Numbered from the stretch's first letter, positions 27,458 to 56,662 are shown. The stretch is DNA of 64,000 nucleotides from a virus (IMGVR_UViG_3300037047_000246), one strand, 5' to 3'. Numbers and translations: made by a program. Notes: generated by a model not told the origin, from the sequence alone.

Positions 27458-28285
27458 TTACGCATTCATAATATCTTCGACTGTCGTGTTTTCCGGATGA
27501 CGCAGAACATGCAGCGGACCGTCATAATCCACTAGCCAGCACAGATCTGGGTGGCAAGCGACGTCTGCGAACAGCATCGGTTGACCGTCTACCACCATTT
27601 CTGCGCTCATCAGGCGCACTATTTGCGAATAGTCCACATGCTTTGTGTTGTGGGCTGTGCCGACGGTCTGCCACATGTAGCCGCCGCCAGGACTCCTGAA
27701 AGGACCGTTCTTCGGCGCAGCCGGGTTCGGCCTGGCTTTTGTGTGCCATCCGTAGTTGGCCGCCAGTCCAGGCTTGCCGGCCAACCTGTTCGTCAGCACC
27801 CAGTCTTTGCCTACGCCAGAGACCAAGCCGAGCTGCTGTCGACCCACCATCTCCAGTGTGCCAGGCTCGGGCCAGTGTTTGGTCGCCGCCAGCACGGCGT
27901 CAGTCACAGCCTGGCTGTGCCTGACCATGCGGCTGGTGTATCCCATTTTGGAGTCAGGCGTCTGGGTGCGAGGCTCAATCTGAACGCGGGACTGGGCGCG
28001 TATCAAGTCAGCTATCTTCGGCGTGATGAGCGACATTCGCAACAAATCTGCGATGCTCTGCTCGCCTCGCATCGTGGCATTGACGCGCAAGAAATCGTCC
28101 GGCTCGCCAAGCATCAAGGCGTCGGCCATGACAAACACCTTGGCCACGTGCCCTTTCCACGAGGACTCGATCTCCACCATCTTGGGCTCAATGTAGTGAC
28201 CAAGCCCGATGAAATTGATGATTTTAGCTTCCCGCTTCGAAGTAGGCTCTTCAGGAAGCTCTGCGACGATTTCGGATGCCTTCAT
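27458..28285 (-). CDS. hypothetical protein (carries C-terminal tag VEDIMNA)
   Basis: 275-aa ORF; HVDYSQIVRLM motif. Confidence 0.75.
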   Translation of the reverse strand: MKASEIVAELPEEPTSKREAKIINFIGLGHYIEPKMVEIESSWKGHVAKVFVMADALMLGEPDDFLRVNATMRGEQSIADLLRMSLITPKIADLIRAQSRVQIEPRTQTPDSKMGYTSRMVRHSQAVTDAVLAATKHWPEPGTLEMVGRQQLGLVSGVGKDWVLTNRLAGKPGLAANYGWHTKARPNPAAPKNGPFRSPGGGYMWQTVGTAHNTKHVDYSQIVRLMSAEMVVDGQPMLFADVACHPDLCWLVDYDGPLHVLRHPENTTVEDIMNA

Positions 28286-28309
28286 GCTGGAAGCGGCGCC
28301 ATCACAGCT

Positions 28310-29050
28310 TCAATCTGCCACGGCCAGTTCGAAGTGCATTCCATCCGGACGCGCACCCCACGCACCTCCCCAGAAAAATCCCAGCTCCTCGGCTGCGGGC
28401 ACCAGGAGCCGCACCGAGCCTTGGGCGCCTTCTGCGGCAGGGGAGGCGCCCAGAGGATTCCATTTGGCGTTGATGTCGAAAGCAGTCGCGAACGCATGCG
28501 AGCTGAGAATGGACCGGCTGCCGCGAATATACCTGGGCGCCCAACTGCCGTCCCACGTCAGCACAAGCGGAAGCAGACCTTCAGACTCCCAGCGAGCCCA
28601 GAGTTTGGCCAGTCTGTCGGCGCCTTTGGCATGGAACGGCACAGAGCAGCTGGAAGGCGCTCCCCGGCGACCCGCAAGCTGAGGGATTTTCACATATTTC
28701 AAATTGGACTGCCACCCGTTGGTGATGCGTATGGCCTCCGGGTTGCCCGGCTGCGGGCTTGGCACATGCGTCAATGGACCAAACAGCCTCTGCTTTTCTA
28801 CATAGCTTATCGCAGACAGCTTTGTGGTGATTTCAGGCGGGTCAGGATCAAATCCTGACAACCTGGCGGCGCCGACGGTATCTCTTCCAACTACGCCGTC
28901 GTCGTTCAGTCCGGCATTTTGTTGGAACAGCTGCGTAGCTTTTTTAGTATCCGGGCAAAAGTTGCCGTCGGCTTTGTCCAGCAGACGCTGCCCAATAAGG
29001 AACAGTTGCCATCTTGTGACCTCAGGTCCGCGGCTTCCTTGCTTGATCAT
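28310..29050 (-). CDS. Endolysin: peptidoglycan-binding domain + M15-family peptidase
   Basis: GSRGPEV..WQ..L...DG.F..DT.KA...FQ...GL.DDGVVG (PG_binding_1); SSHAFATAFDIN and DGMHFEL zinc ligands. Confidence 0.88.
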   Translation of the reverse strand: MIKQGSRGPEVTRWQLFLIGQRLLDKADGNFCPDTKKATQLFQQNAGLNDDGVVGRDTVGAARLSGFDPDPPEITTKLSAISYVEKQRLFGPLTHVPSPQPGNPEAIRITNGWQSNLKYVKIPQLAGRRGAPSSCSVPFHAKGADRLAKLWARWESEGLLPLVLTWDGSWAPRYIRGSRSILSSHAFATAFDINAKWNPLGASPAAEGAQGSVRLLVPAAEELGFFWGGAWGARPDGMHFELAVAD

Positions 29051-29095
29051 ACGAAGACAGTACTGCGCAGAGCATGTCCCCGAGCGCCGCGCCTT

Positions 29096-29938
29096 TCACC
29101 GAGCTCGCCTGCGCCACACAGTCATGGTGTCATTGATGCCAGGCCACTTCGGTATTTCGACCAAACCAGACATGTCGAACTTCTCACGCAAAACCTCGAA
29201 AAACTCTGGATCGGCCATAGTGTCGCTGGCAAGTTCGCCCACATACACCAAGTTTTCGCCGGTCCAATGTTGCAAACATTGGCTGGCCATCGAGCCTCTG
29301 GGCGGCCAGCACAATAGCAAGGTCCTGTCTCCGTACACTCTCAAATCGCTGGGTTGACCAGTTTGCACTTTGCTGTGCTGACGGGCATTGACGTGCCATG
29401 GGTTGCAGGCCGCCACCAAAGACTTGAGTGAACCCGGCGGAGACCTATCAAGCGCAACGACGTCCGCCCCCATTCGGCGCAGCAGCGCCGTCCAGTATCC
29501 GGTGCCGGCCCCCATTTCCACAATCGGTGACATGGACAAGACTTCGCTCAATGCGGTTTCTGTGGGAATAGCCCATGAGTACCTTGCAACCAACTTGTCT
29601 CTGTGCTCCACAACTCGGCGCACTAGCCCGGGGTTGTCTTCGAACTCCTTGTGCTGCGGACAACATTCCAGATATGCGCGCAGCAGCGGATTGAACTGCT
29701 GCGCGAGCTGCTCCTTGGCTTGCTTTGGCAGCTTCTTTATCCTTGCTTCTTCGCGCAGCGCGGCAGACTTGTCAATAACCTTTGCGCACCAGGCCACGGT
29801 CAGCGGCCCTCGCCCTCTGGTGTACTTCGCTCCACGCTTGCCAGACCTGTGCTCCTGAAGTCTCCGCGGCATGTTGTTTGTCACGCCAGTGTACATAGTT
29901 CCGCCGCCGCATCGAATCATGTAAACAACCCAGGACAT
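29096..29938 (-). CDS. GIY-YIG (UPF0213-like) nuclease fused to a class I SAM-dependent methyltransferase-like domain
   Basis: VYMIRC...YTGVTNN..RRL.EH.SG.GAKYTR; YSWAIP...IVEMGAGTGYW.ALL...DVVALD. Confidence 0.8.
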   Translation of the reverse strand: MSWVVYMIRCGGGTMYTGVTNNMPRRLQEHRSGKRGAKYTRGRGPLTVAWCAKVIDKSAALREEARIKKLPKQAKEQLAQQFNPLLRAYLECCPQHKEFEDNPGLVRRVVEHRDKLVARYSWAIPTETALSEVLSMSPIVEMGAGTGYWTALLRRMGADVVALDRSPPGSLKSLVAACNPWHVNARQHSKVQTGQPSDLRVYGDRTLLLCWPPRGSMASQCLQHWTGENLVYVGELASDTMADPEFFEVLREKFDMSGLVEIPKWPGINDTMTVWRRRAR

Positions 29939-29984
29939 TTCCGGCCTCCAGGGTGACATACTGCACGAACGATTAGACTTACAT

Positions 29985-32210: not shown

Positions 32211-32260
32211 CAGGGGGAGCCTACAGCGCGAGCTCCATGATTTCCGTCATTCTTCCGCGA

Positions 32261-32794
32261 TCATTCTTCCATGATTGACCAGACCGCTACCGTGGCGTCA
32301 GACAAACCCTCGATCGAAGAGAACTGAGGATTCTCGTCCGGGGTCCAATATACCATGCCCTGCGGCGAAAGCCGCAGCTTGCCCGACCACTCGACTTGCA
32401 TCTCTTGTCTGGCCGGGAACGGCAGGCGCGCTCTTGCGTCAGCCACGGCCCGGCGGAACGCGCCGAACCATTCGGAAGCGGCCTGGTCCAAAGTCGGGTT
32501 GTCGACTGCCAGCCGCACGCCTGCACCGGTCTCGAGGTAGGTGTTGCCAGAGTCACATATGAGGCTTACGCCAATGACCATGTCTCCATCTAGCGGCAGA
32601 TCGAACTCTTCGAGGTGCCGCAGCGAGTCGGCGGCGTTGGCCACTTCCATGCATCTGTTAACATAAATCTCGGTTCTGGCTGGGGCCAGCTTGCGCCCCA
32701 TGGCGACGGCTTTGCCCTCGGCGTTGCGCCTGGAGGCCGGCCGGGCTTGCAACTTGAACGCCTCGCTTATCCAACGCGCCGTCGCAGACTTCAT
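32261..32794 (-). CDS. hypothetical protein (weak RusA-like resemblance; C-terminal tag VWSIMEE)
   Basis: ATGA-coupled to dam. Confidence 0.6.
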   Translation of the reverse strand: MKSATARWISEAFKLQARPASRRNAEGKAVAMGRKLAPARTEIYVNRCMEVANAADSLRHLEEFDLPLDGDMVIGVSLICDSGNTYLETGAGVRLAVDNPTLDQAASEWFGAFRRAVADARARLPFPARQEMQVEWSGKLRLSPQGMVYWTPDENPQFSSIEGLSDATVAVWSIMEE

Positions 32795-33627
32795 TGGCAC
32801 TCCGCGCAGTTGCTCACAAGGATCTCTGGCACAGATGTGCGTTTGTCTGGCCTACCCACACTGCGTGTGCCGGTGACCACCTCTACTTCAAAATCGCAAA
32901 ACCACGCCGCATTGCCTGCCGCCGAGGAGTTAGACAAAACCTGTGCGACTCCGGCGCCGTCCAAACGTTTAAATGTCTCGACGAGCCTCAGGTGGTCTGA
33001 TGCAGCAAAGCCGCCAGACGTGTACTGGGTGAAGTTGGCTGTATTGGAAATAGGCAAGTATGGGGGGTCGTAGTAGACGGCGTCGCCAGGTCCTGCGTCA
33101 GTGCAAATGTTCTCGAAATCCGACTCGGCCAGCTCGGCCATCTGCAAAGCTTCCGAGCAGGCCCTCAAGTTGGCTTCGTCGCATGTCACCGGGTTTTCGT
33201 ACCGGCCGAAGGGCGTGTTGAACTGGCCTTTGCTGTTGACTCTGTGCAGGCCATTAAAACACGTTTTGTTCAAATAGATGGTGCGGGCAGCGCGCACCAC
33301 CGGAGTCATCTTGTCCGGGTCCGCCCGCCTGATGTCCAAGAAGGATTCGCGGTCATATTTATACTGCGACTGGCGCAACTCGCGCACCAGGTCATCGACT
33401 TGGTCTCGCACCGCCTGGAAAGCATTCATCAGCTCTGGACATTTATCGCCGATGACCGCGCGCTCAAATCGGCGCGTCCTCGCGAGTTCAAAAAAGACTG
33501 CGCCTCCGCCCAGAAACGGCTCGTAGTAAGTGCCGATGCGGGCCGGAAGCTTGGCCAGGATGCGTGACGCCAGGCGGCCCTTGCCTCCACACCATTTCAA
33601 GAACGGCCTTGTATGGGTATTCGACAT
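32791..33627 (-). CDS. dam: Dam-family DNA adenine methyltransferase
   Basis: PFLKWCGGK, YYEPFLGGGAVFF, YLNKTCFNGL.RVN..G.FN.PFG, YYDPPY. Confidence 0.93.
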   Translation of the reverse strand: MSNTHTRPFLKWCGGKGRLASRILAKLPARIGTYYEPFLGGGAVFFELARTRRFERAVIGDKCPELMNAFQAVRDQVDDLVRELRQSQYKYDRESFLDIRRADPDKMTPVVRAARTIYLNKTCFNGLHRVNSKGQFNTPFGRYENPVTCDEANLRACSEALQMAELAESDFENICTDAGPGDAVYYDPPYLPISNTANFTQYTSGGFAASDHLRLVETFKRLDGAGVAQVLSNSSAAGNAAWFCDFEVEVVTGTRSVGRPDKRTSVPEILVSNCAECQ

Positions 33628-36360: not shown

Positions 36361-36585
36361 TCACGACTCCTGCACGTCCATGACGTCCATTATGCTGCGC
36401 GCATTGTCCCTGAAATACTCCAAATCGTCGATCCTCTGTTTAAGATCTTCAATTTCGCCAAGCTTTTTTCTGAGATCTCCGATTTGGCCGATGAGACTGG
36501 CAATCTTAGCTTGCATTGACCGTACGGCGCGTCCAGAAGCACGCCGTACGACTGCTGATTTTTTGCGCGTCGTCCGTTTCTTCAC
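36361..36585 (-). CDS. small coiled-coil protein (tag VMDVQES)
   Basis: 74-aa ORF. Confidence 0.7.
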   Translation of the reverse strand: MKKRTTRKKSAVVRRASGRAVRSMQAKIASLIGQIGDLRKKLGEIEDLKQRIDDLEYFRDNARSIMDVMDVQES

Positions 36586-36703: not shown

Positions 36704-37147
36704 TTAACTTCCCATCACTTCCTCGGCGACCTTGCTGGTCAGCCGCTCGAAGTCCACAGACCTCTCCAGCAAGTTCCACAGCGGCTCGGCGGCGCATTCC
36801 ATCAGGAAAGACTCATATCTCCATCGCTGGTCTGTCCGGTTATGCTCGTCATATCTTGGCTCCAAGCGGCCGAGCTCTTTCTTGGTCTGACGCAGTGACA
36901 CCGTCATCATCACTATATTGCCGTACAGCTCCGGCAGCACAGTGCAGTGTGCTTGCGCCAAAATTCCGCTACTGCCTTGCCACGGCACGTGTTTCTCCGC
37001 TGAGAAGGTGACGGTAAACACGTCAGAATTGGATCCTGCGCCGTGCACGAACACGTTGAACGGGCAGTTGTCTACTGTGCTGGCGAGGCGCTTGAAGTCT
37101 TCGTCCATGCACGACACGACACTGCTTTTGAGGCGCCGGAAGTTCAC
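36704..37147 (-). CDS. hypothetical protein (tag AEEVMGS)
   Basis: GTGA-coupled start at 37147. Confidence 0.7.
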   Translation of the reverse strand: MNFRRLKSSVVSCMDEDFKRLASTVDNCPFNVFVHGAGSNSDVFTVTFSAEKHVPWQGSSGILAQAHCTVLPELYGNIVMMTVSLRQTKKELGRLEPRYDEHNRTDQRWRYESFLMECAAEPLWNLLERSVDFERLTSKVAEEVMGS

Positions 37148-37755
37148 GTCGCGCACCCATTCAAAGCCCCGACTGCTATCTGGTGTCGCCAGTCCATCGT
37201 GGCTGGGACACTGAGCGCGCAGCGCGAACACACAACGCAGTTGCCATTGTCTGCCCACTCGTGTCGGGTCTGCTTCTTGTTCAAAACCTTGGCTGGGCTC
37301 GCCACCCGCCAGCAGCTCTTGCCGACTGTGTGGTGTGCGGCGTACTGTGCGACGACTTCAGATGTCACCCTCCACATTTTCCCTATCTTCTTGCCTGGCA
37401 GGCGCCCTTCCCGCAACATCTTGACCATGGTCTGCGCGCATAGCCCGAGACGCTTTGCAGCCTCGGCTGCGCTCAGTCCGGCCTCAGTCTGCCGCGGCGC
37501 TACACGCAGCCCTGCGAAATTGCCTTCTGGCTGCAATCCAGCCATGGCCGCAAGCATTGCCTTAGCAGCCCAAGCCGTGCGGGCTGCTGCCGGCATGAGT
37601 CGCTTCACAGTGGGCAGAACCTCTTGTTCCCAGCCTGGCTTGGCCGCGACTGCGCGGCGCTGCATGCCCAGCAGGTTTCCGTGAAGCAGGTTTGCGTCTT
37701 TGACCGCTGCAGCCACCTGCTTGCGCAGCTTTGCGGCTCCGCGGCTCGTCTTCAT
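37144..37755 (-). CDS. Excisionase/MerR-type HTH_17 DNA-binding domain protein
   Basis: LSAAEAAKRLGLCAQTMVKMLREGRLPGKKIGKMWRV. Confidence 0.8.
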   Translation of the reverse strand: MKTSRGAAKLRKQVAAAVKDANLLHGNLLGMQRRAVAAKPGWEQEVLPTVKRLMPAAARTAWAAKAMLAAMAGLQPEGNFAGLRVAPRQTEAGLSAAEAAKRLGLCAQTMVKMLREGRLPGKKIGKMWRVTSEVVAQYAAHHTVGKSCWRVASPAKVLNKKQTRHEWADNGNCVVCSRCALSVPATMDWRHQIAVGALNGCAT

Positions 37756-38159
37756 GAGTCCTGCACCTGCCTGGTCACCAGATCCTGCAAAAACTGCTGG
37801 AGCAGTTTTTTGGATGGGTTCTTCATGTACTTGATTGAACTCCCACCCTGCTGGATTGCTTCAAGCTGCACTTGTTCGGACGGCTGCTTGATGAACCGCA
37901 CAGCGGTCCAGTTTTGCTTGACTGCTGCAAGCTGTACTTGTTCGGACGGCTTATTGATGAACTGGATTGAGAAGCCGTTCTGTCGGACTGCCGCGAGCTG
38001 GACCTTTTCGGACGGGTTCTCGATGAACTGAGTCGCCTCACTGTTCTGCCGGACTGCTGTAAGCTGAAATATCTCTGAACACAGACCGAGCGCGCAGCGC
38101 AGACCTGACTCGAATGCTTCTTCAGGAGTCAGCCCGTGCTCTTGCAGCAGCTCTTTCAT
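37752..38159 (-). CDS. DUF4116-like 22-aa repeat protein (tag TRQVQDS)
   Basis: Four repeats QLxAVxQNxxxIxFIxxPSExV (66-bp degenerate DNA repeats). Confidence 0.8.
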   Translation of the reverse strand: MKELLQEHGLTPEEAFESGLRCALGLCSEIFQLTAVRQNSEATQFIENPSEKVQLAAVRQNGFSIQFINKPSEQVQLAAVKQNWTAVRFIKQPSEQVQLEAIQQGGSSIKYMKNPSKKLLQQFLQDLVTRQVQDS

Positions 38160-38278
38160 GAGTCATGAACCTTCCGCAGGATGCACCGGGATTCGGGACA
38201 CTCCGGATCGTGGCAGAATTCGATCACTCCGCCCGCTCCGATCGAATACGAATGGCCGACAGGCACGTTCTCAGTCAT
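38156..38278 (-). CDS. small Cys-rich ORF (tag LRKVHDS); natural start probably TTG 38369 across a one-base frameshift
   Basis: Own translation MTENVPVGHSYSIGAGGVIEFCHDPECPESRCILRKVHDS; ATGA coupling downstream. Confidence 0.6.
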   Translation of the reverse strand: MTENVPVGHSYSIGAGGVIEFCHDPECPESRCILRKVHDS

Positions 38279-38365
38279 GATGATGTGCAGCGTCAAAGCA
38301 GACCCCGCGGAGCACGGATTGTGATGCGTATCGGGTGGGCAATCTTGATCATGTGACCGGGGGTT

Positions 38366-38602
38366 TCAAGACTGCATGATTCGGCGCACGAGCTGCCGAT
38401 TGCAATCAGAGTACACTTGGTCTCGCTTCAAATCTGCTGGCTGCGGCTTCCACCCGACGCAATCGCGCGGGTCTGTGTCGTCCGGCGCCGCCACTCGGCA
38501 CTCGGCGCCGCACTGGGTGCATCGCCAAATGAGCACGCACTTGCGCCGCTTTTTGCGCCACCCGATGCGATGGCGCGCCATCTGCCAGTCGTGGTTGAGC
38601 AT
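38366..38602 (-). CDS. small zinc-finger protein (tag VRRIMQS)
   Basis: HDW...WRCTQCG. Confidence 0.7.
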   Translation of the reverse strand: MLNHDWQMARHRIGWRKKRRKCVLIWRCTQCGAECRVAAPDDTDPRDCVGWKPQPADLKRDQVYSDCNRQLVRRIMQS

Positions 38603-38638: not shown

Positions 38639-38902
38639 TCATATTGAGTGGATGTACATCACGAGAGCTTCCTCGTACGTAATTGGTACGATTGAATCTA
38701 AACTGTGCATTGCTCGCCACTGCGTAGCGCAGTCCTTGCACAGCGCATTAGGGCGCATAACCAGACTACCAAACCTCCCATCAATCGGTAGAAGTGTGCG
38801 CCACCATTCGACGGCAGGCTTACCGCATCGTTCTCCTTCCAGTTCAGGCCCCTCTACCAGAAGAATGACGCAACATCTGTCTGTGGGTAATCTTGCAATC
38901 AT
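38639..38902 (-). CDS. small Cys-containing protein (tag VMYIHSI)
   Basis: 87-aa ORF. Confidence 0.65.
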   Translation of the reverse strand: MIARLPTDRCCVILLVEGPELEGERCGKPAVEWWRTLLPIDGRFGSLVMRPNALCKDCATQWRAMHSLDSIVPITYEEALVMYIHSI

Positions 38903-40531: not shown

Positions 40532-40723
40532 TCATATGGTCATCACATGCTTGACACATTGCTCGTCGCAAAACAAGACTCCATTGAGCTGCCATAGACG
40601 GCTGTCCGTGTTCGGGTCAGAGCAATTGGTGATCACTGCAGCTGCACAATTCCGGCACTGCCACAGTCGCCAGTTTCCATACTTGGTGTCACCACTCATT
40701 CTGACGATCCAGTTGTGCAACAT
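40532..40723 (-). CDS. small zinc-finger protein (tag VKHVMTI)
   Basis: HNW...WQCRNC. Confidence 0.7.
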   Translation of the reverse strand: MLHNWIVRMSGDTKYGNWRLWQCRNCAAAVITNCSDPNTDSRLWQLNGVLFCDEQCVKHVMTI

Positions 40724-40788: not shown

Positions 40789-41040
40789 TCAGCATTCGGT
40801 TTTGTTCTGTTTCCAGCGGCGCAAGAAGCGTCTGTCAGGGCGGCTTCCCTCGTGCACTCCGCCGTGCCCAGCGAGCCGCCGGCAGACGTAGCCTAGATGC
40901 TCCGCCCCGCATTGGTCGTCGCCCGCATAAGGCGGCTTGCCCAGCCGGACGCGGTCCTTGACCTCTTTGGCCGATCGCTTGGCCGAAGCCCGGCAGCGGG
41001 TCGCGTGCTTGATCTGATTTGTCTTCTTGCGCGTTTTCAT
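40789..41040 (-). CDS. basic hypothetical protein
   Basis: ATGA-coupled; C...C...H..H. Confidence 0.55.
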   Translation of the reverse strand: MKTRKKTNQIKHATRCRASAKRSAKEVKDRVRLGKPPYAGDDQCGAEHLGYVCRRLAGHGGVHEGSRPDRRFLRRWKQNKTEC

Positions 41041-41372
41041 CCGTCCATTACCTGGCTGACAATGACGTAGTTATTCATCTCTCGCGCAAGCATACAATGC
41101 TCAAAGGCAGCCGCATGGCTGCCATGCAACTTGGGGTCCATACCGACCATTTGCACAAATTTCCGCCGCGTGTTTTCGTCCATACCCTTGCAGGTATTGA
41201 CGAACGACAGCAGGCCGGCCATCTGGAACTCGAACCATGTTGGGTCCTCTAGCGCAGGCGAGCCGTCATGATCGAATTTGGTTGGGCCGTGCTTGGCGCT
41301 CCACTTAAAGCTGTGGCCGCACGCGGCGCAGACCCATTTGCACCCTTCGCACTTCCAGTTGTGCGACGACAT
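41037..41372 (-). CDS. small zinc-finger protein (tag VSQVMDG)
   Basis: HNWKC..C.WVCAACG. Confidence 0.7.
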   Translation of the reverse strand: MSSHNWKCEGCKWVCAACGHSFKWSAKHGPTKFDHDGSPALEDPTWFEFQMAGLLSFVNTCKGMDENTRRKFVQMVGMDPKLHGSHAAAFEHCMLAREMNNYVIVSQVMDG

Positions 41373-42473
41373 TCAACGCACCTCGTGCATCTCGGGCATC
41401 GGGCGTGCCATATATTCGATGCAGCGCAGCAACTTCAGGTCGGAAACCCCTACCAGAGAGCCATGTCCGCGCAAGTTAATAGCAAATCCAGGAGCCATTT
41501 GCGGCGTGAGTTCGAGCACAGCGTCGGCTTCTCTCACGTCGCCACAGGCCAGCACATCGCGCGTCATAGGAGCCCCTAAGACGTAGGTGTGCGAGTGCAG
41601 CATAAATCGCACGAACGGCAGGCGATTGAAAAGTCGGATACTGATTGGCGAATCGACCGACGGCTTGGCATCGCCCCAGTACCCTGTGCGCTGCTCGTCC
41701 AGCAAGCTCACCGGAACGAATCCGCCCGCGCCGATGTCGCGCTTGTCTATGTTGCGCCGAGACATGTAGGCAATGCCACCCAGGCGGAAGGCGGGGAACC
41801 CGCTCTCGCATCGGAAGGACGCATTGCCCATCAGGCGCTCCGGATTAACCGCAGCATGTATCAATTCGTGAAACGTCTTGGCATGACTGCGGACGATATT
41901 GAAGAACTCTTCCACCTCGTCCGGCACGCCTACCTGATGACAGGCGGCGCGCCACAAGTCGGACTGCTCGCTGCCCAAGCACGTTGAGCTGACGCGCGTA
42001 CCGTGCTGCAGCTCTGTCATCCTGGCAGCGAGCGCCCCGGCGACGCGCTCGACATCTAGCTCGTTCGACAGGAACACATTGCCAAGCGGATCCATCAGCG
42101 TGGTGGACACCTTGCTTTCGGCCTTGCGCAGCTCTAGCATCAGGCCACTGTGGGATTTGAGCGCGCGGGCGATCAAATCGCCAAAAGAGTAGCGCCCTTC
42201 GTCGTTGCGCTTGGTTGTGATCAGCAGCGTGTGCGGCGCGAGCCGCTTGATGTCGTTGATCAGCTTGGGCCGGCTGTTGTCGACGTCCGGCATCCACAGC
42301 ACAGTGTCGTGGTCCGGCAGGGCCTTACATATGCGCTCCAGCGTCGCCCAGTCGCCGCCATTGTGCACGGTAGCGATATGTGCGAGGTGTTGCGCGAGCA
42401 GGTTGACGTATCCGGATGGCTTGCCTGTTTCGAAGTTGCCGCCGATGATCAGCATGAGATGATTTACACTCAA
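41373..42473 (-). CDS. class II aldolase/adducin-like domain protein with extra N-terminal domain
   Basis: GNASFR, KPSVDS, MLHSH, LRGHGSL motifs in the C-terminal half. Confidence 0.7.
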   Translation of the reverse strand: MSVNHLMLIIGGNFETGKPSGYVNLLAQHLAHIATVHNGGDWATLERICKALPDHDTVLWMPDVDNSRPKLINDIKRLAPHTLLITTKRNDEGRYSFGDLIARALKSHSGLMLELRKAESKVSTTLMDPLGNVFLSNELDVERVAGALAARMTELQHGTRVSSTCLGSEQSDLWRAACHQVGVPDEVEEFFNIVRSHAKTFHELIHAAVNPERLMGNASFRCESGFPAFRLGGIAYMSRRNIDKRDIGAGGFVPVSLLDEQRTGYWGDAKPSVDSPISIRLFNRLPFVRFMLHSHTYVLGAPMTRDVLACGDVREADAVLELTPQMAPGFAINLRGHGSLVGVSDLKLLRCIEYMARPMPEMHEVR

Positions 42474-42937
42474 TCAGTCATCACCGACACTACTATTTTG
42501 TTGTCTATCATGTCGATCATCTCGCTGCGGCTCACCCCGGCGCGAATGGCGTCGTGTAGGGCCTTTTGCAGGGCCACGCGCGGCTCGACCGCCTTCTTGA
42601 GCCACGTGGCGTCGACATAGGTGTCGACACCGAACGACATGGCGTTGAGCGCCATGTCGGCGCGAATTCTGGCGTCGCTGAGCGGCTCAAGCTTCCACCA
42701 AGTGCCATGCAGCTTCACCGCCTCGCCGTCGGGGCGCATGCCGGTCGAGTGCGAGGCCATCGATCTGGCGGCCCATAGCACCGGCGGTGCTTCATCGCTG
42801 AGCATTCGGTTCCAGTCCATCCATTGAACCGGCGGCAGATCGCCCAGAGGCTCAACCTTGAAAGCGCTGGTCTGCCTGCCTTGCGAATATGTTGCCAAAG
42901 CTCCAGTCGACACCGCCGGCCCGACCAAGTTGACCAT
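42470..42937 (-). CDS. hypothetical protein (tag VVSVMTD)
   Basis: ORF in a coupled minus-strand run. Confidence 0.65.
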   Translation of the reverse strand: MVNLVGPAVSTGALATYSQGRQTSAFKVEPLGDLPPVQWMDWNRMLSDEAPPVLWAARSMASHSTGMRPDGEAVKLHGTWWKLEPLSDARIRADMALNAMSFGVDTYVDATWLKKAVEPRVALQKALHDAIRAGVSRSEMIDMIDNKIVVSVMTD

Positions 42938-42938
42938 C

Positions 42939-43196
42939 TTAGCTCTCCTGCACTTCCTTGACTTGGAACAAATCAGCCACGTGTTGCACGTCTTCAAGAG
43001 TTACCTTGCGCGAACCGGACTTGCAAGTGTTGGCATAGGTTATGATGTCGTGCGCGTCCCTGCCAGAGATAAGCTGCAAAATGCCGAAGATCTCTTCTGG
43101 CGTAAATTTAGCAAACGTGCGAGCACGCGGGACGTGCTCCCTGCCCACATTGTTGAAGAAGCGAAACATCCCATCGGCTGCTTTGCTCTTAGGCAT
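42939..43196 (-). CDS. hypothetical protein (tag VKEVQES)
   Basis: ATG 43196 with TGTACG box 7 nt upstream. Confidence 0.65.
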   Translation of the reverse strand: MPKSKAADGMFRFFNNVGREHVPRARTFAKFTPEEIFGILQLISGRDAHDIITYANTCKSGSRKVTLEDVQHVADLFQVKEVQES

Positions 43197-43408
43197 GCCG
43201 AGATCGTACAATCGAACCAGCACCTATTTTCGAGATACCCGCGTTAGCAGTGCGGCATCAGGACCTTCCCGACCAACGCTTCCACGTCTTATACGAGCTG
43301 GCACCACATTTGTTTGCGGCATGATATACCGTGTCTGTCACGCCGCAAACTAGACCGGGTTTTGCCGGGTTTCCGGCCCTTCTTAAGATTTCGATGGGAC
43401 GCTAGGGC

Positions 43409-44917: not shown

Positions 44918-45127
44918 TCATGACTCGTGGGTGTTGAAGATGTCGGTCATCTCGCACCCATTGTCCGGATGTGCGTCAGGGAAGCTCACTCCGCAATCAG
45001 GACATTTCCGCAGGATTCCGGCTCTAGGGTCCGCTGGGTTCTTAACGAAACTTACTAATATGAACTCGGTTCCATGTACAGCTGCTTGACATCCTGCTCG
45101 GTCAGGTTCATTTCTAGCACGTCCCAT
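44918..45127 (-). CDS. small Zn-motif protein (tag IFNTHES); N-terminus probably frameshifted
   Basis: CPDCG...HPDNGCE. Confidence 0.55.
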   Translation of the reverse strand: MGRARNEPDRAGCQAAVHGTEFILVSFVKNPADPRAGILRKCPDCGVSFPDAHPDNGCEMTDIFNTHES

Positions 45128-45316
45128 ATCGCACGCATCTCGCAGCAGTTCGGCGAATCCACTTCGCCATTTCGCTTTGCAGCACGAACATCGAAGCGTC
45201 TCCAGTTAGTCTCTGGTTGTTCGCAGCGGTCGCGCCATGGCTGCGGCCAAAGCGGCTATGCGCTAGGCCCTTCCGACCGATTCGATGAACTTTCTGATGA
45301 CGGGATCGGTGTTCAT
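45100..45316 (-). pseudogene. decayed paralogue of neighbouring Zn-motif/tag ORFs
   Basis: ATGA-coupled start 45316; in-frame TAG (45263-45265) and TAA (45206-45208); frameshift before PNCCEMRAIWDVLE. Confidence 0.65.
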
Positions 45317-45508
45317 GGCATCATCACATCCCAGATTTCGCGCAATTCACAATCGTTGAGCGGATGCGGTCCATGCAGCCACTTGGCGCCGCAGCTAGGG
45401 CATTCTTTCTGCGGTCCGCCGCCTTGCATGGTTTGAGCGAGAAGCCGACGGCCGGCCGGAGTCATGATGGCTCTGGCAATAATTGCCTCTTTTTTCGGCC
45501 GGCGTCAT
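45313..45508 (-). CDS. small Zn-motif protein (tag IWDVMMP); coupled start 45508 is out of frame by one base in an A6 run
   Basis: In-frame part 45465-45313: MTPAGRRLLAQTMQGGGPQKECPSCGAKWLHGPHPLNDCELREIWDVMMP. Confidence 0.6.
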
Positions 45509-45720
45509 GTTTCGCTCACATCATACACGTCGCGCAGCTCGCAGTCGTTGCGCGGATGGCCGAAGCAGCATTCGACGCTGCATGATGGGCATTTGGGCGG
45601 GCGCCGGAGAGTCATGTTGAGCGCCGATGCCCAATGAAGGTATCGGCCGCCCGCCTCGACGTCGAGCACGCGGATGGCCGGCGCGTCCAGAAACCGGAAG
45701 AACCGTAAGTCACGACTCAT
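45505..45720 (-). CDS. small Zn-motif protein (tag VYDVSET)
   Basis: CPSCS...HPRNDCE; AGGAGG SD. Confidence 0.7.
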   Translation of the reverse strand: MSRDLRFFRFLDAPAIRVLDVEAGGRYLHWASALNMTLRRPPKCPSCSVECCFGHPRNDCELRDVYDVSET

Positions 45721-45746
45721 GGCGCCTCCTGACCATAAGGAAACTC

Positions 45747-45911
45747 CTAAGACTCATGGACATCCTCCATCAAGCCAGTCTCACAGTTCAGCTCGTGGCC
45801 GTCAATACGCTTGCATTTGTCGCATTTCCGGAACGGCTGGTCGTAGAAGGCTTGAACGACCGAGTTCAGCAGAGGTTGTATTGGAAACGCCAGTGCGCGG
45901 CTTCCAGTCAG
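45747..45911 (-). CDS. small Zn-motif protein (tag MEDVHES), start uncertain
   Basis: Own translation ...FRKCDKCKRIDGHELNCETGLMEDVHES. Confidence 0.55.
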   Translation of the reverse strand: MTGSRALAFPIQPLLNSVVQAFYDQPFRKCDKCKRIDGHELNCETGLMEDVHES

Positions 45912-46162
45912 CGGTTGTCATCTCTCATCTGTCCTATTGTGCGGACTCCCAAGACCCACAGGACTCCCTGGACGAATCCGAGCCATCTGTTGAACCTGTC
46001 AGGATTCCCAGCGGCGTCAGGCATCTGCAGAAGCATCCACGCCACATGCTTCTTGGCGAAATGCGCATCCAGCGGCGGCGTCTCCATGGATGCTCGCTCA
46101 GGCTCGACACCGAGGTCCTTTACATAGCCCTCCATAGCTGCTGTTACCTTGTCGATGTTCAT
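45908..46162 (-). CDS. conserved-looking phage hypothetical protein
   Basis: DRFNRWLGFVQGVLW motif. Confidence 0.7.
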   Translation of the reverse strand: MNIDKVTAAMEGYVKDLGVEPERASMETPPLDAHFAKKHVAWMLLQMPDAAGNPDRFNRWLGFVQGVLWVLGVRTIGQMRDDNR

Positions 46163-47455: not shown

Positions 47456-47788
47456 TCACGCTTCCATCGTTTCCCGCACGTGCTCCAATCGCAGTGTGCT
47501 GATCAAGCGCTGCAAATACATGCACTGCATTTGCCCGGCTCCGCCCTCCAGCAAGATGTCCTTCCACGAGCTTCTGCCAAACAGCCACGGCTTGGACATC
47601 GGATTTATGCGGACAGCCAAAATTTGGCCGCAGCGAGAACACTGAGCTGCCATGGACTCGTGCGTTATGGCTGTGAACATGCAGTCATGGCCATACTCGG
47701 CCATGACGCTTCTGATAGTATGCTCCAGGCGCATTTGATTGGAAATGTTGCGCATTATCTTCTGTGCAAATTTGATGGTGGGTATCAT
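47456..47788 (-). CDS. hypothetical protein (tag VRETMEA)
   Basis: 110 aa; H-x-C...CSRCG. Confidence 0.7.
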   Translation of the reverse strand: MIPTIKFAQKIMRNISNQMRLEHTIRSVMAEYGHDCMFTAITHESMAAQCSRCGQILAVRINPMSKPWLFGRSSWKDILLEGGAGQMQCMYLQRLISTLRLEHVRETMEA

Positions 47789-49811: not shown

Positions 49812-50234
49812 TCATGCGCTCATGACTTCCTGCACAGCCAGCAGCTGCTCAGCTTCGTCCAGCTGCTTATCCCACTCGCATTGCTGACTTCGCCATAGAT
49901 GCCAGATTGTCCTGAACTCGTATGTATTGGCGAGCTTCCTGTTGGACAGCGCGCTGCGGTCCATGCGCAGAAGCGTCCTGCAAAAGTATTCGGCAGCGTC
50001 CCTGATGACAGCTTTGCGCTGATATTCGTTCAACCCGGCAGCAGTGGAGAAGACCGCAGATTCAAAGCCTTTCCAGACGAACTTGAAGCCGACTCGCCTG
50101 AAGTCGGACAGAATCGGCACGAGCGCCATCTCGCTCAGATTGGGCACAACCTGCTGCCTGCCTGCCGCGTCGACGACGCGCGTCGGGGTGGGCATCCGCT
50201 GCCTGCGGCCGTCTCTAGTCACCGCCCTTGGCAT
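49812..50234 (-). CDS. hypothetical protein (tag VQEVMSA)
   Basis: TGTAAA box 7 nt upstream of ATG. Confidence 0.7.
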   Translation of the reverse strand: MPRAVTRDGRRQRMPTPTRVVDAAGRQQVVPNLSEMALVPILSDFRRVGFKFVWKGFESAVFSTAAGLNEYQRKAVIRDAAEYFCRTLLRMDRSALSNRKLANTYEFRTIWHLWRSQQCEWDKQLDEAEQLLAVQEVMSA

Positions 50235-50247: not shown

Positions 50248-50399
50248 CGAAAATGCGCTTAATCTTCGCGCGTCGTCTGCTCCGGTGTCTGATGCCTGGC
50301 GTCGCAATGCTGCATGGGCGGCATTGCTTCTTCACAGCTTTGTCTGACACGTTGAGTGATACAGCTCTCCTCGGCATAGCCCTGTAAGCATTGTTGGAG

Positions 50400-50918
50400 A
50401 TGCACCGGTTTCGTATTGTACTGTGTCGCATGATTTCGATCATGGTCGACAGGCTGTCGCCCGGGGGCCTTCCTCACTATTGGTTACCGGACCCGTGGCC
50501 ACACCGGGTGTTGTTCGTGGATTCTACGGGCCAGAACATACTTCAACTCAAGGGCGATTCCAAGAAGGTGTGCCTGCCCGAGTTTGAGCTGTGCTCCGCG
50601 GTCGTTGCCAGGTCGCAGGAAGCCATGAGGCTGGTGCGGATTAAGGTGCTGAGGTTCATGGCCGAGTTCTGTTTAGCCGCCGAGATCCAGGATGGCCTCG
50701 TGCTCATGCCTATGCGCAACGAGATGGTGCTCGGAGTCGACGGCGGATATCTGGGATCGATCACTCTCAGCCTAATGGTCACCAGCCCGTTCGAGGCCGA
50801 GGCCGAGGCCGAGGCCGGCCACGAGTATGACTGGATCCCGCGGGAGATCGCCGACATGCCGGCATTCGCCAGCGATATGGAAAACTACCTGACGGTCATG
50901 GGAGTGATGTTGGAATGA
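50400..50918 (+). CDS. hypothetical protein (tag VMGVMLE)
   Basis: TGTAAG box and GGAG SD upstream. Confidence 0.7.
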   Translation: MHRFRIVLCRMISIMVDRLSPGGLPHYWLPDPWPHRVLFVDSTGQNILQLKGDSKKVCLPEFELCSAVVARSQEAMRLVRIKVLRFMAEFCLAAEIQDGLVLMPMRNEMVLGVDGGYLGSITLSLMVTSPFEAEAEAEAGHEYDWIPREIADMPAFASDMENYLTVMGVMLE

Positions 50919-51213: not shown

Positions 51214-51234
51214 GTTTTTGTATTTTTGCAAATC

Positions 51235-51786: not shown

Positions 51787-51841
51787 GATCAGACTAGTGA
51801 CTTAGGTAGTGTGGCTCCAACTGCATCGAACGCGGCTCTTT

Positions 51842-52267: not shown

Positions 52268-52275
52268 GTTGCTAA

Positions 52276-52767
52276 GTGACAAAAAAAAAAATCCATACCG
52301 CCGCCGACTGGGTCGTAAATGCGATGCCTGCGCAAGTAGCCAAACCCATGGGTCCGAGACCTTCCACTCGCTTTGGGCGTTCAAGCAAACAACGCGGCAA
52401 GTCTTGCACGCCAGAGTGGTCCAAAGAAGGGTGCAAGATATTCGCCACTGTAGAAGGGATGCTGCGAGCCATAATCGGATACATACATGGCACCGGACGC
52501 ACGCTGGTGCCGCACGAGTTCGACGTGAAATGTGTCGCGTATTCTGGATTTCGAGACCCGGTCAACAACCGCAGGTGGGCCGTCAGCTCCTGGAGTGTTA
52601 AACCAGTGTTCAGCCGTCCGGAATGCGACGAGCTGCCGGACGAGTCGGACCTTGGCTTCATTCATTTTGCGATGTGCACCATGGCGGGCAAGAGACGCTT
52701 GATCCAGCTTGCTGCGGGCAAGGAACTCGACGGCCTGCTAGCCATGCGCAAAGTGATGGCCGAATGA
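52276..52767 (+). CDS. hypothetical protein (tag MRKVMAE), A11 tract in codons 2-6
   Basis: GTG ACA AAA AAA AAA ATC. Confidence 0.7.
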   Translation: MTKKKIHTAADWVVNAMPAQVAKPMGPRPSTRFGRSSKQRGKSCTPEWSKEGCKIFATVEGMLRAIIGYIHGTGRTLVPHEFDVKCVAYSGFRDPVNNRRWAVSSWSVKPVFSRPECDELPDESDLGFIHFAMCTMAGKRRLIQLAAGKELDGLLAMRKVMAE

Positions 52768-53003: not shown

Positions 53004-53019
53004 CGCCTGAGACCTTTAT

Positions 53020-53546: not shown

Positions 53547-53590
53547 GGCCCACTTTACGCGCCAAGCGCGTTCGTTTGCACGGATTGAAG

Positions 53591-53596
53591 TGTAAC
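53591..53596 (+). promoter_or_regulatory. YGTA(A/T)N promoter box (divergent partner CGTAAA at 53554-53559, minus)
   Basis: Both boxes lie 7 nt before their ATG. Confidence 0.55.
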
Positions 53597-53603
53597 TGAC
53601 AGC

Positions 53604-54038: not shown

Positions 54039-54185
54039 TTTCCTGGCCTCCGCAATCAGACAGGGCGCACCAGGCCGCACCCTGTCGCCAAGCCTTAGGA
54101 AGACCCCTCCCTGTGTCAGGACGACCCCGGCTGCACCGCTACACAGGAGTGCACCAGTACGCAAGCTTTTGTTCCATGCATTTGC

Positions 54186-54611
54186 ATGAATCACCTAGCG
54201 GCGCGTCAGCGCGAATCTAACAAGCGTTGGGACTACACTTGCAAAAGAGACGGGATGGTGTGGCCGATCGGGTATTGCGCCGGATGGCGAGAGCCGCAGC
54301 CGGGGCTGCTGACTCCGGAGCAGGCCAGCCAGTGGTTGGCCCAATCACTGCCCCACAAAGACAAGTTCCATACGGACGGTCACGACACTGAAGCCGAAGC
54401 TTGCGAATGCTACAAAAGGTATTTGCTTGATTTCGACTTGAGACTCTGCGGGGAAGCCATCAACATGCAGCGAAAATGTGCCGTGTGCTCGACTTGGACG
54501 TCAAAATATGCTCAGCTAGGATACCAGACGTGGTTCTTGTGCGAGGAGCACAGAACCAGAGACCAGGTGGAGAAGCTTTGCACGTCGCCAGGACAGTGTT
54601 GGGAAGGATGA
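54186..54611 (+). CDS. Cys/His-rich hypothetical phage protein
   Basis: RWDYTC...WPIGYC...GHDTEAEACECY. Confidence 0.75.
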   Translation: MNHLAARQRESNKRWDYTCKRDGMVWPIGYCAGWREPQPGLLTPEQASQWLAQSLPHKDKFHTDGHDTEAEACECYKRYLLDFDLRLCGEAINMQRKCAVCSTWTSKYAQLGYQTWFLCEEHRTRDQVEKLCTSPGQCWEG

Positions 54612-54647
54612 CTTGTGAGGCCAGGTTTTTAATGATCGGCGGCTTGC

Positions 54648-55220
54648 ATGAGCACCCTGGAGCCTGCGAATGCTGCGTCGCTAGCGAAATTTGTCAGAAT
54701 AGCAGCGCGCATCGCCGGAGTGCGTGTAGCAACTGCTCCCCGCGGAGAGTCATTTGACCTGACCAGGCATGTGACGCAGTTCCAGGTTTCCCATTCTAAG
54801 CTTCCGGACGATCTCAAAACCGAGTTCGTCAACACCCTGGCCAAAAAAGAGCGCGTGCAGGAGCTGTTCGTGAAGTATGCTCGGTCGCTGCGGGACTCCG
54901 ATCTCAAACAGTTGGAGTACGCACAAAAAGGCTTGGTGCACTCGCTTCAGTCACTGATGCGCATAGCCGAAAACAACATGATCCGGTGGGTGCTGCGGTT
55001 CGACGCCGCACTGACTCGCATAGAGCGATTCGATCCTGCTCTGGTTTATGAATCCGACCTGTGGCACGTGGACATTTGGGTGCAGCATGTGCACGAGCTC
55101 GTCACAGCGCTGTTTCTGGCATGTGGCGGCAGAACCGGAGACGAAGTGCCGACTGAGCTGTGGCAGCCGGAGTGGGGCGACCAAGGCCCTGCCGAAGTGA
55201 CAGAGGCAGATTTCAGCTGA
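54648..55220 (+). CDS. hypothetical protein with N-terminal RIAARIA motif
   Basis: 190-aa ORF. Confidence 0.7.
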   Translation: MSTLEPANAASLAKFVRIAARIAGVRVATAPRGESFDLTRHVTQFQVSHSKLPDDLKTEFVNTLAKKERVQELFVKYARSLRDSDLKQLEYAQKGLVHSLQSLMRIAENNMIRWVLRFDAALTRIERFDPALVYESDLWHVDIWVQHVHELVTALFLACGGRTGDEVPTELWQPEWGDQGPAEVTEADFS

Positions 55221-56271
55221 CGTCGTGCACGCCGTTTTCCCTGATGCCTGCAGCAGTGACTCTAACGAATCGAGCTCGCCGCTGCAGCTCTTTGATGTTG
55301 GCAGCCCCAACATACCCCATGCCGGACCGCAGGCCTCCAACCAGCTGATGCAGAACCGCTGACAACGGGCCTACGTACGGCACTTTGGCCTCCACGCCTT
55401 CAGGCACAAGCTTGTCTGCCGACACGCCAGATTGCCCATAACGATCTTTGGACCCTCGCTCCATGGCGCCGACAGATCCCATGCCTCGGTACACCTTCCA
55501 GCGCCGGTCCATAAGCTCGCCAGGCGCCTCGTCAGTGCCAGCCAGAAGAGAGCCGATCATGACTGCATCGGCGCCGGCGGCAAGAGCTTTGACGATGTCT
55601 CCAGAATTCCTGATTCCGCCGTCTGCCACGATGGAGACGTCGTGTTTGTCAGCTTCCTCGGCGCAGTCTGCCACAGCGGTGAACTGAGGCATGCCGCAGC
55701 CAGACACTAGACGGGTGGTGCAAATCGTGCCTGGCCCCTGGCCAATTTTGACGATGTCTGCGCCAGACTCCACCAAGGCTCTCACAGCAACGGCGGTCGA
55801 CACATTTCCAGCCATGATCTTCATCTTCGGGTACTTTGCCTTGATGTCGCTCACTGCTCGAAGAACGTTGACGGAGTGACCGTGCGCCGAATCTACAACT
55901 GCAAGGTTGACGAACCGTTCGCATTCGCCCAGGCGCTGTTCCCAGTCCCGAACCCCAACCGCCACAGCGGCTGTGGGGAAATGCGTTGAACCTTTGGCCG
56001 CATGCGCCCCAAGCGCCTTCCTTGCTTTCCTGATTTCGGCCGCTTGCTCGGCGGGGCTCAGGTTCTTGTGCACCACGCCGCACCCGCCCGCTCTGGCCAT
56101 GGCCGCCGCCATGGCTGCCTCGGTCACAGTGTCCATTGCGGCGCTTAGAATGGGAATTGCAAGTTTGAGTCCGGACAAGCTGGTGCCGCAGTCAACATCT
56201 GCTGGCACAACGCTGCTCAGCTGCGGGATCAAGAGCACATCGTCAAAGGTGAGGCATTCGCGAAGTTCCAT
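55213..56271 (-). CDS. guaB: IMP dehydrogenase lacking the CBS subdomain
   Basis: [35 protein letters not shown] (catalytic Cys), ADGGI, YRGMGS, PEGVE. Confidence 0.93.
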
Positions 56272-56340
56272 GGCACACCTTACCGTTGGCGTTTCTGGCG
56301 CGCCACCTCGCGCAAACAAATCTTACATAGAATTCTAGGC

Positions 56341-56384
56341 TTGCCGTCTATGTCGTTTGGAGGTACCAAACCATGGACACGGCA
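56341..56384. terminator. long intergenic hairpin upstream of guaB
   Basis: TTGCCGT/ACGGCAA and GTTTGG/CCAAAC arms. Confidence 0.4.
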
Positions 56385-56431
56385 AAGTTTACTAACCCCA
56401 GCGTCTGTCGAGAGCTGGTCTCATAGGAAAA

Positions 56432-56662
56432 CTATTCCTCCATCGTCCATTCCACAGCGGCGTGCGGGCAGATGTCATCGCGCGTCACTGGCGACGCCAT
56501 GTCAAACCTTCGGCCACACTTCTTGCACACGAACTCGTCACTTGAAAAGTCGCAGTCGCACTCGTGTCCGACGCCAGCCAAATCGAGCACGCGCCACACA
56601 CGCTCATCCTCTTTGGCCTGAATTGCCACGAATCCCGCCAATTTCTTGCACTCAACAGCCAT
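56432..56662 (-). CDS. small zinc-finger protein (tag VEWTMEE)
   Basis: HECDC...CKKCG...C. Confidence 0.65.
   Translation of the reverse strand: MAVECKKLAGFVAIQAKEDERVWRVLDLAGVGHECDCDFSSDEFVCKKCGRRFDMASPVTRDDICPHAAVEWTMEE

Follow-up and report, generated by a model that had tools for sequence, protein, structure and literature searches.

Why should 21 mostly unrelated accessory proteins of one virus end in the same kind of heptapeptide? The question is raised by a 64,000-nt stretch of DNA (hereafter the window) from the virus record IMGVR_UViG_3300037047_000246, for which a reading made from the sequence alone (the sequence-only reading) had proposed that these protein ends form a docking or targeting tag recognized by one common receptor. 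The full record to which the window belongs comprises 362,524 bp, is complete with direct terminal repeats and has a GC content of 57%. Among the products of the window are a DnaB with an intein, a DNA polymerase of family A, a RecA/UvsX-like protein, an SbcC-like protein and a tail fibre that bears an S74 chaperone domain. No close relative was detected among GenBank phages (megablast gave no matches), and the best PolA match in GenBank was to an uncultured 485-kb phage at 35% identity. Genes were predicted over the whole genome with a dicodon gene caller, giving 418 genes at 89% coding density; the approximately 94 tagged open reading frames (ORFs) discussed below combine called genes with small ORFs that were missed by the greedy caller and rescued. 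We find that the tag is a genuine, statistically overwhelming and clade-conserved C-terminal docking motif with a natural variant. As a clade-wide feature such a docking tag is undescribed in the literature searched, in which no publication on a tag of this kind was found.

A heptapeptide at the exact C-terminus of about one protein in six

Each of the 21 heptapeptides listed by the sequence-only reading was found, at the position given there, to directly precede a stop codon (Table 1), with 19 of the frames on the minus strand and two on the plus strand. Counting back from the C-terminal residue (-1), position -7 is Val in 14 proteins, Ile in two, Met in two and Leu, Ala or Thr in one each; position -4 is Val in 14, Ile in four and Thr in three; and position -3 is Met in 13, His in four, Gln in three and Ser in one, in full agreement with the earlier tally. 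The claim of 21 tagged proteins held for the 20 ORFs that have an ATG, GTG or TTG start, among which three short ORFs had weak coding scores (Table 1), and is doubtful for the frame ending at 45747, which has no canonical start.

The strict pattern [VI]xx[VI][MQH]xx-stop was found to end 55 of the 418 called genes, compared to 0.45 expected from its internal frequency (P~1e-94). Scoring of the same C-termini with a position weight matrix (PWM), the cut-off of which was the 99.9% quantile of internal sequence windows, likewise revealed an enrichment far above chance, with 72 of 418 genes tagged versus 0.42 expected. The tagged share of the proteome is approximately 17-19%, about one protein in six. 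The register was strict: exactly two residues follow the motif in the 55 cases, and zero to two cases were found at each other offset. The extended consensus is E(-10)-[VL]-x-V(-7)-[RE]-[EQ]-V(-4)-[MQH](-3)-[ED](-2)-S(-1)-COOH, corresponding to a tag of 7-10 residues. Conservation is strongest at -7, -4 and -3; at the last two positions Ser (42), Glu (14) and Ala (9) prevail at -1, and Glu (34) and Asp (16) at -2 (n = 94). An acidic amphipathic pattern reaches back to about -18.

Tagged genes cluster at 6-35 kb of the genome, in the window, and at 266-353 kb, with a few scattered among structural genes. The sequence-only reading underestimated the scale of the tag, which is both genome-wide and clade-wide rather than a trait of one array. 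The residue at -3 varies by region, with Met leading at 0-40 kb (12 Met, 2 His, 3 Gln) and His and Gln leading at 280-360 kb (22 His, 19 Gln, 15 Met); sub-classes, differing for instance in timing or in affinity, may underlie these differences. Strong tag-like sequences were also observed inside accessory proteins (genome 352,749-353,282, 331,676-331,969, 292,528-293,508 and others), one example being EALVREVMEE followed by 28 further residues. Such internal sites are probably fossils of stop-codon loss or of fusion between neighbouring small tagged genes.

Conservation of the tag in related huge phages

Five other huge phages (G001 to G005) were compared over their whole genomes to the genome studied (G000). 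In G001 (377 kb, 51% GC, 67% mean amino acid identity to G000) the tag was present on 91 of 488 genes. Approximately 25 of 28 orthologue pairs between G000 and G001 retain it, with swaps among Met, Gln and His, at a body identity of only 30-65%. The partial genome G005 (183 kb, 39% GC, 47.5% mean amino acid identity) carries a variant, E-x-x-T(-7)-x-E-[VIL](-4)-[VIL](-3)-[ED]-[SG], on 48 of 250 genes, and one orthologous protein was found to end in VADVQIS in G000, VAEVTLS in G001 and TSEVLES in G005. No tagged genes were detected in G002 (437 kb, 55% GC, 38% mean amino acid identity) or in G004 (298 kb, 43% GC, 30% identity over two shared proteins). G003 (363 kb, 53% GC, 38% mean amino acid identity) gave three matches, to a PWM that had been seeded and iterated on a few chance matches of G003 itself.

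Public gene calls of further contigs gave tag counts of 19/36 in L140 (436 kb, 55% GC), approximately 17/44 in L142 (an NCBI assembly; 303 kb, 52% GC), approximately 26/43 in L144 (about 310 kb, 36% GC), 11/38 in L145 (197 kb, 38% GC) and approximately 6/40 in L141 (398 kb, 53% GC), the last with Leu or Met at -3. Tags of the Met/Gln/His type are found in phages from 36% to 57% GC. Since contigs of differing GC are densely tagged, the tag type tracks phage phylogeny rather than base composition, and its clade-specific variant is in keeping with one reader evolving alongside the tag.

Retention of the motif exactly at the terminus of orthologues, as expected of a tag, was further evident in two protein families. 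The 11 closest orthologues of the 275-aa protein at 27458 (61-75% identity, several of them from contigs as large as 430 kb) each carry the tag at their very end, Met, His and Gln being interchanged (...VMNA, ...VHES, ...VQNS), and the tag was present in five of five homologues of a second family, a multi-zinc-ribbon protein of 121-123 aa. More distant phage and myxobacterial homologues of the 275-aa protein stop at a conserved RHP.. domain end without a tag; the tag is therefore an appended extension. Other members of this family are fused to Amidase_2 or PG_binding_1 or lie in Sorangium and Chondromyces chromosomes. The 275-aa protein probably represents a cell-wall-associated domain that has yet to be characterised, and a myxobacterial host is suggested by the homologues on chromosomes. 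In an AlphaFold2 model of this protein (predicted local distance difference test, pLDDT, 95.7) the tag formed a short terminal helix (residues 269-273) of lower confidence, and the predicted fold had no Foldseek match in the PDB. An amphipathic i/i+3/i+4 helix at a fixed distance from the carboxylate had been proposed for the tag: the fixed distance was borne out, and the terminal helix of this one model is consistent with the remainder.

The signal acts at the level of protein

A ribosome-binding site, translational coupling, a terminator or a recombination site that happens to be translated would also give genes a common end, and ATGA/GTGA overlaps are present at many tagged gene ends, with purine-rich codons common at -6/-5. 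In 94 aligned 3' ends, nucleotide information was found in codon positions 1 and 2 only; the silent third positions and the 30 nt past the stop codon were at background, with approximately 0 bits. The confinement of information to codon positions 1 and 2, with nothing 3' of the stop codon, indicates that the tag acts on protein. Overlap with a downstream start was as frequent in tagged (19%) as in untagged (17%) small genes, the register is set by the stop codon and not by the next start, Met, Gln and His have no codon pattern in common, and the same peptide is retained across the range of GC contents given above. Val codons at -7 and -4 follow genome-wide usage approximately, with GTG somewhat enriched at -4, and all three stop codons occur (chi-square P = 0.07), as the claim of varied codons and stops had stated. 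By these measures (silent positions, downstream nucleotides and overlap rates) the conservation is not one of DNA alone. A nucleic-acid signal has, in our judgement, a vanishingly small probability, its ribosome-binding, coupling and DNA-site forms being ruled out by the codon-position information and the overlap frequencies.

Nature of the tagged proteins

When the last 12 residues were cut, 85 of 94 bodies were singletons by BLASTP, in line with the claim that the proteins are mostly unrelated; the four zinc-ribbon ORFs at 44918-45917 resemble tandem paralogues. A shared paralogous C-terminal domain was ruled out, as these 85 bodies have no BLASTP partner and the tag is appended beyond the end of the 275-aa domain. 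A Pfam scan of 89 tagged proteins gave real matches only to DUF4116 (three proteins) and GIY-YIG (one). The GIY-YIG nuclease is the only tagged protein of this genome above 300 aa. Tagged proteins are Cys-rich, and 38% of them have a homologue in the closest relative compared to 52% of untagged small proteins, indicative of fast evolution. Segments resembling transmembrane helices were found in 0 of 73 tagged versus 12 of 219 untagged small proteins (P = 0.04); with this result and the acidic nature of the tail, a membrane-targeting helix or secretion signal was ruled out. None of the core replication, recombination or tail proteins in the window is tagged, just as had been claimed, and the tag is absent from the PolA, DnaB, RecA and SbcC homologues. 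In G001 and G005 the larger tagged proteins include four ankyrin-repeat proteins and a RecB-family nuclease, with a RecD2-like helicase in G005, and are compatible with an effector or adaptor library. No common promoter motif was detected upstream of tagged genes by a crude k-mer count, in which the top repeated k-mers came from a CRISPR array.

The tagged frames of the window are collected in Table 1. The frame at 45747..45917 is either a remnant (a recent pseudogene) or a zinc-ribbon copy translated from a non-canonical start codon.

Table 1. Tagged frames of the window, with their C-terminal heptapeptides (coordinates are those of the window).
Feature	Coordinates	Strand	Heptapeptide	Remarks
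275-aa protein	27458..28285	-	VEDIMNA	Tag at 27461-27481
179-aa protein	32261..32800	-	VWSIMEE	215-aa protein of relative L020 ends VWVVMGA; matched by syntenic position only
74-aa coiled-coil-like protein	36361..36585	-	VMDVQES	G001 orthologue ends ISDVQDS
184-aa protein	36704..37258	-	AEEVMGS	
135-aa DUF4116-repeat protein	37752..38159	-	TRQVQDS	One of three tagged paralogues
46-aa ORF	38156..38296	-	LRKVHDS	Coding score 7.9
78-aa Cys-rich protein	38366..38602	-	VRRIMQS	
87-aa ORF	38639..38902	-	VMYIHSI	Weak coding score (-0.9), doubtful gene
63-aa Cys-rich protein	40532..40723	-	VKHVMTI	Weak coding score
111-aa Cys-rich protein	41037..41372	-	VSQVMDG	G001 orthologue ends FEEMMEM
175-aa protein	42470..42997	-	VVSVMTD	G001 orthologue ends VVVTMED
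94-aa protein	42939..43223	-	VKEVQES	Coding score 40
69-aa zinc-ribbon protein	44918..45127	-	IFNTHES	One of four apparent tandem paralogues
50-aa zinc-ribbon ORF	45313..45465	-	IWDVMMP	Weak coding score
71-aa zinc-ribbon protein	45505..45720	-	VYDVSET	Atypical Ser at -3
Open frame without ATG/GTG/TTG start	45747..45917	-	MEDVHES	Fourth zinc-ribbon copy; positive coding score
110-aa protein	47456..47788	-	VRETMEA	
140-aa protein	49812..50234	-	VQEVMSA	
175-aa protein	50391..50918	+	VMGVMLE	G001 orthologue ends VMEVMTA
163-aa protein	52276..52767	+	MRKVMAE	
76-aa Cys-rich protein	56432..56662	-	VEWTMEE	

A proposed common reader of the tag and its alternatives

We consider it likely that the tail is a short linear docking motif, acting at the protein level and read by one common partner. 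The tag would form the final turns, acidic and amphipathic, of a C-terminal helix carried by this sixth of the proteome. The carriers are soluble, small and fast-evolving; among them are zinc-ribbons, a GIY-YIG nuclease, a homologue of cell-wall fusion proteins, and proteins with ankyrin or DUF4116/HEAT-like repeats. One partner that handles the carriers as a group would bind the tag at its three hydrophobic positions and at the free alpha-carboxylate two residues on. The exact distance to the carboxylate, the restricted set of residues at -3 and the coordinated variant of a sister lineage point to one binding site, from which we infer that a single reader exists. Since the tag type follows phylogeny and the sister lineage has its matched variant, this reader would be phage-encoded. 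The receptors suggested by the sequence-only reading (RNA polymerase, the replisome, a protease, a chaperone or a packaging route) are conjectural, as is its view of the array as a plug-in effector library.

A special case of such a common reader is one in which the outcome is turnover, the tag being a C-terminal degron by which a protease or unfoldase (a host AAA+ protease or the phage MoxR-zincin pair described below) removes the carriers on schedule or limits the level of toxic ones, for instance the nuclease and the protein associated with the cell wall. Dependence on the exact terminus is typical for C-terminal degrons, the genes of early-type arrays contribute small, soluble carriers, to which this nuclease (GIY-YIG) and the cell-wall-associated protein are added, and a zincin with an intact HExxH is fused to a VWA adaptor in a conserved module. 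However, the last two residues are polar or acidic (Glu/Asp, then Ser/Glu/Ala), unlike the non-polar ends of the ssrA type, conservation is strongest further in, at -7, -4 and -3, and phage N4 has the pair without the tag; we therefore hold turnover to be a possible outcome and a less than even one. Loading into the capsid, in which the carriers would bind scaffold, portal or the shell interior and be packaged and injected with the DNA in the manner of T4 internal proteins, is in our view unlikely. Encapsulins and the T4 capsid-targeting sequence do operate through short terminal peptides carried by small proteins that are otherwise unrelated, and a few tagged genes adjoin head or terminase genes (e.g., genome 204,002-204,444; head genes at approximately 183-204 kb), but most lie in long accessory arrays far from structural genes and some 70-90 different cargoes would be unprecedented. 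Large structural proteins are also without strong tag-like sites, which argues against a link to prohead-protease sites; such a link was ruled out, as the internal tag-like sites are few and mostly in accessory proteins.

An explanation without any reader would make the tail an element in habitual use by this lineage that serves structure or solubility by itself, for instance by capping a helix or by shielding the C-terminus from host proteases, or else a legacy of a common C-terminal module. The tag is a short helix in the sole model made, the acidic amphipathic pattern extends well beyond the heptapeptide, and a few small paralogue groups are present among the carriers, as such an element would allow. 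A stability element, however, needs neither an exact two-residue distance to the terminus nor a restriction to Met, Gln or His at -3; moreover, the switch to T..[VIL][VIL] in the sister lineage is coordinated and extends to an orthologous protein, the 275-aa domain folds and is widespread without the tag, and the bodies are unrelated. This explanation is accordingly given a very low probability.

A MoxR/DUF2201 module as candidate reader

Approximately 37 untagged genes are common to the tag-bearing genomes and absent from G002 and G003. They include genes for a MoxR-type AAA+ ATPase (Pfam AAA_5/AAA_3), a zincin-VWA protein (DUF2201_N and DUF2201), a LigA-type BRCT protein, a sigma-region-4 protein, PurZ, ThyX and many proteins of unknown function. 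The MoxR-type ATPase is unusually conserved (82% identical in G001 and 53% in G005), and the DUF2201 protein has an intact HExxH and metal ion-dependent adhesion site (MIDAS), with HEGYH and DTSGS...T...TDGD invariant. Genes for the two proteins lie within tagged arrays in nine of the nine tag-bearing contigs sampled, six of which were selected via DUF2201, with BRCT and/or DUF6011 nearby in most; the module is absent from the tagless G002 and G003. In the genome studied, the genes lie at 299,583-300,689 (MoxR), 304,233-305,813 (DUF2201), 307,830-308,903 (DUF6011) and 311,160-311,501 (BRCT).

We speculate that this pair is the leading candidate for the reader. The extreme C-terminus of the VWA protein NorD, a short hydrophobic tail, docks on the hexamer of the MoxR protein NorQ, and deletion of its last two residues abolishes the complex (PMC13036017), which provides a mechanistic precedent for reading an exact terminus. 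Similarly to NorQ-NorD, the phage encodes a MoxR-type AAA+ protein and a VWA partner with an intact MIDAS, and dependence on the exact terminus is common to both systems. By contrast, the NorD tail is on a single adaptor and ends in ...LVA, here some 90 putative clients end in V..V[MQH]ES, and the phage VWA protein has an additional zincin domain. By analogy to NorQ-NorD, the tag may dock on the AAA+ ring or the VWA adaptor, such that the tagged protein, or the molecule which that protein holds, would be remodelled or cleaved. The same two-gene architecture, a MoxR AAA+ protein and a vWA protein with an N-terminal HExxH peptidase, has been reported for group 2.2 jumbo phages with a proposed role in virion assembly, without mention of a client tag (Iyer et al. 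2021, PMC7824862). Homologues of this MoxR/DUF2201 copy in GenBank phages are all below 30% identity.

Several points weigh against this assignment or against one phage-encoded partner in general. Presence of DUF2201 in the six contigs chosen through it is by construction, and the co-occurrence of tag and module amounts to approximately one phylogenetic event, with some 35 other genes having the same pattern of presence and absence. Distant homologues of the pair are found in tagless phage N4 and in tagless G004; no tag was detected in the first 50 kb of N4, including gp24/gp25, or, of this kind, in the first 50 kb of KVP40, and a rule that MoxR/VWA implies the tag thus fails on N4. The stretch after sensor 1, which aligns to the NorQ post-sensor-1 loop, is identical in phages of the first tag type and of the variant, such that the change of tag is not explained by this stretch. 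A highly conserved host factor could account for the same tag across GC contents. In addition, a single destination is hard to reconcile with a tagged set in which proteins acting on DNA stand beside others related to the cell wall. Co-folding of DUF2201 with BRCT and a 75-aa tagged protein gave a score of 0.00 with the partner poorly folded, and counts neither way.

Two other proteins were considered as readers and rejected. No relative encodes a homologue of the first, a 653-aa GHKL/HATPase protein located beside the array. The second, a ThiF/E1-like enzyme, is encoded next to a tagged gene in relatives but is missing here. In these relatives a short (190-aa) ThiF/E1-like protein is followed by a small tagged protein (L020 953-1777, L022 1590-2419 and L024 2388-3208).

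Further features concern the module and other genes of the tag-bearing clade. The DUF2201 zincin-VWA protein (genome 304,233-305,813) and 63 homologues have a nearly invariant C-terminus, F-G-R-V-A-P-L-R-x-x-R-x, by which, as in NorD, the protein might itself dock on the MoxR ring. An untagged 134-aa protein (genome 296,134-296,538) that ends in ...FW[VI]FGD lies beside the module in tag-bearing genomes and has orthologues in G005 and in the L140-L145 contigs (five of six DUF2201-anchored contigs). Its predicted fold is a beta-sandwich of jelly-roll/cupin-like type (pLDDT 85) with only weak structural matches, and no peptide-binding domain was identified from the fold and these matches. An adenylosuccinate-synthetase-like gene (genome 249,167-250,366) and a ThyX gene (253,135-254,529) occur specifically in the tag-bearing clade, as would fit a lineage whose DNA contains modified bases.

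If the MoxR ring were the reader, the accessory proteome might consist of interchangeable adaptors that deliver bound host or defence targets to the ring for remodelling or proteolysis. The variable body (ankyrin, HEAT-like or zinc-ribbon) would bind the target and the common tail would hand it over; this would amount to programmable targeted degradation, functionally parallel to the poxviral Ank/F-box adaptors, with tag and reader diversifying together. We regard so specific a scheme as doubtful.

Comparison with known terminal peptides

Short terminal peptides are read in several known systems. Two of them, the encapsulin cargo peptides and the T4 capsid-targeting sequence, send unrelated proteins to a single HK97-fold compartment. 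Encapsulin cargo peptides are found on unrelated cargo proteins, have a G-S-L-type consensus and are encoded beside the shell gene. The phage tag is similarly a short terminal peptide on unrelated proteins, but its consensus differs and the 70-90 tagged genes are in accessory arrays away from head genes. The T4 capsid-targeting sequence is an N-terminal leader that is cut by the prohead protease at [LI]-x-E; by contrast, the phage tag is C-terminal, and the large structural proteins are without strong internal tag-like sites. Degrons of the ssrA/ClpXP type are portable, have non-polar ends (...LAA) with a free carboxylate and are read by an AAA+ machine. A terminal peptide with a free carboxylate is common to both, whereas the last two residues of the tag are acidic or small polar and its key positions are -7, -4 and -3. 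Ligands of PDZ domains and tail-specific proteases have a hydrophobic C-terminal residue, unlike the tag, which mostly ends in Ser, Glu, Ala or Gly, and the terminal EEVD of the Hsp70/Hsp90-TPR system is not found in the tag.

Clamp-binding tails (archaeal PIP boxes, bacterial QL[SD]LF and the T4 gp45 ligands) and the acidic tails of SSB bring many proteins to one hub. The clamp motifs (QL[SD]LF or Qxx[LIM]xx[FY][FY]) have a conserved Gln followed by an aliphatic and aromatic pair. Although unrelated proteins with a common C-terminal peptide occur here as well, the tag has neither a Q..L..FF nor a QLxLF pattern and is free of aromatic positions, including at its end. Few of its carriers are evident DNA enzymes, and it is absent from replication proteins. 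Poxvirus ankyrin/PRANC proteins combine variable repeats with a folded F-box-like domain of approximately 40 aa that binds host Skp1. Variable repeats with a common C-terminal element are also seen among the tagged proteins (four with ankyrin, three with DUF4116/HEAT-like repeats); the common element here is, by contrast, a peptide of 7-10 residues in a bacterial virus, with no ubiquitin system.

Other features of the genome

The DnaB-like helicase (window 18-2057, plus strand) is split by an intein with a LAGLIDADG endonuclease domain. The CRISPR array (genome 213,098-213,970) consists of approximately 12 copies of a 36-nt repeat starting GTCTCGACGTATCGAGC and adjoins a 797-aa ORF at 210,753-213,146. 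A second C-terminal motif, W-D-L-G-K-K-R-W plus approximately six residues, is shared by six or more proteins with lengths of about 560-700 aa (window 22632-24410, plus strand, and 13730-15436, minus strand; genome 134,113-136,026, 158,094-159,947, 226,795-228,597 and 232,149-234,263). Those scanned against Pfam have REase_MTES_1575 and GNAT domains, and the motif also occurs in L022 and G005. The proteins resemble mobile nucleases of the homing type, a family with insertions all over the genome; neighbouring proteins of 500-630 aa with Mom, Vsr or DUF4379 domains also have the look of related mobile nucleases, with different ends.

Implications

Phage accessory genes are mostly functional dark matter, and the tag provides an experimental handle on some 70-90 unknown proteins per genome, as well as a simple sequence rule by which members of the accessory class can be spotted in metagenomes. 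A single peptide pull-down could expose the hub on which these proteins converge. As a compact, portable element of 7-10 residues with a natural orthogonal variant, the tag could also be of use in synthetic biology. For the widespread and unexplained viral MoxR/zincin-VWA pairs, it suggests a possible mechanism of client recognition. Whether the outcome is chaperoning, degradation or packaging, a tag of this kind would represent a new organising principle of phage-host takeover.

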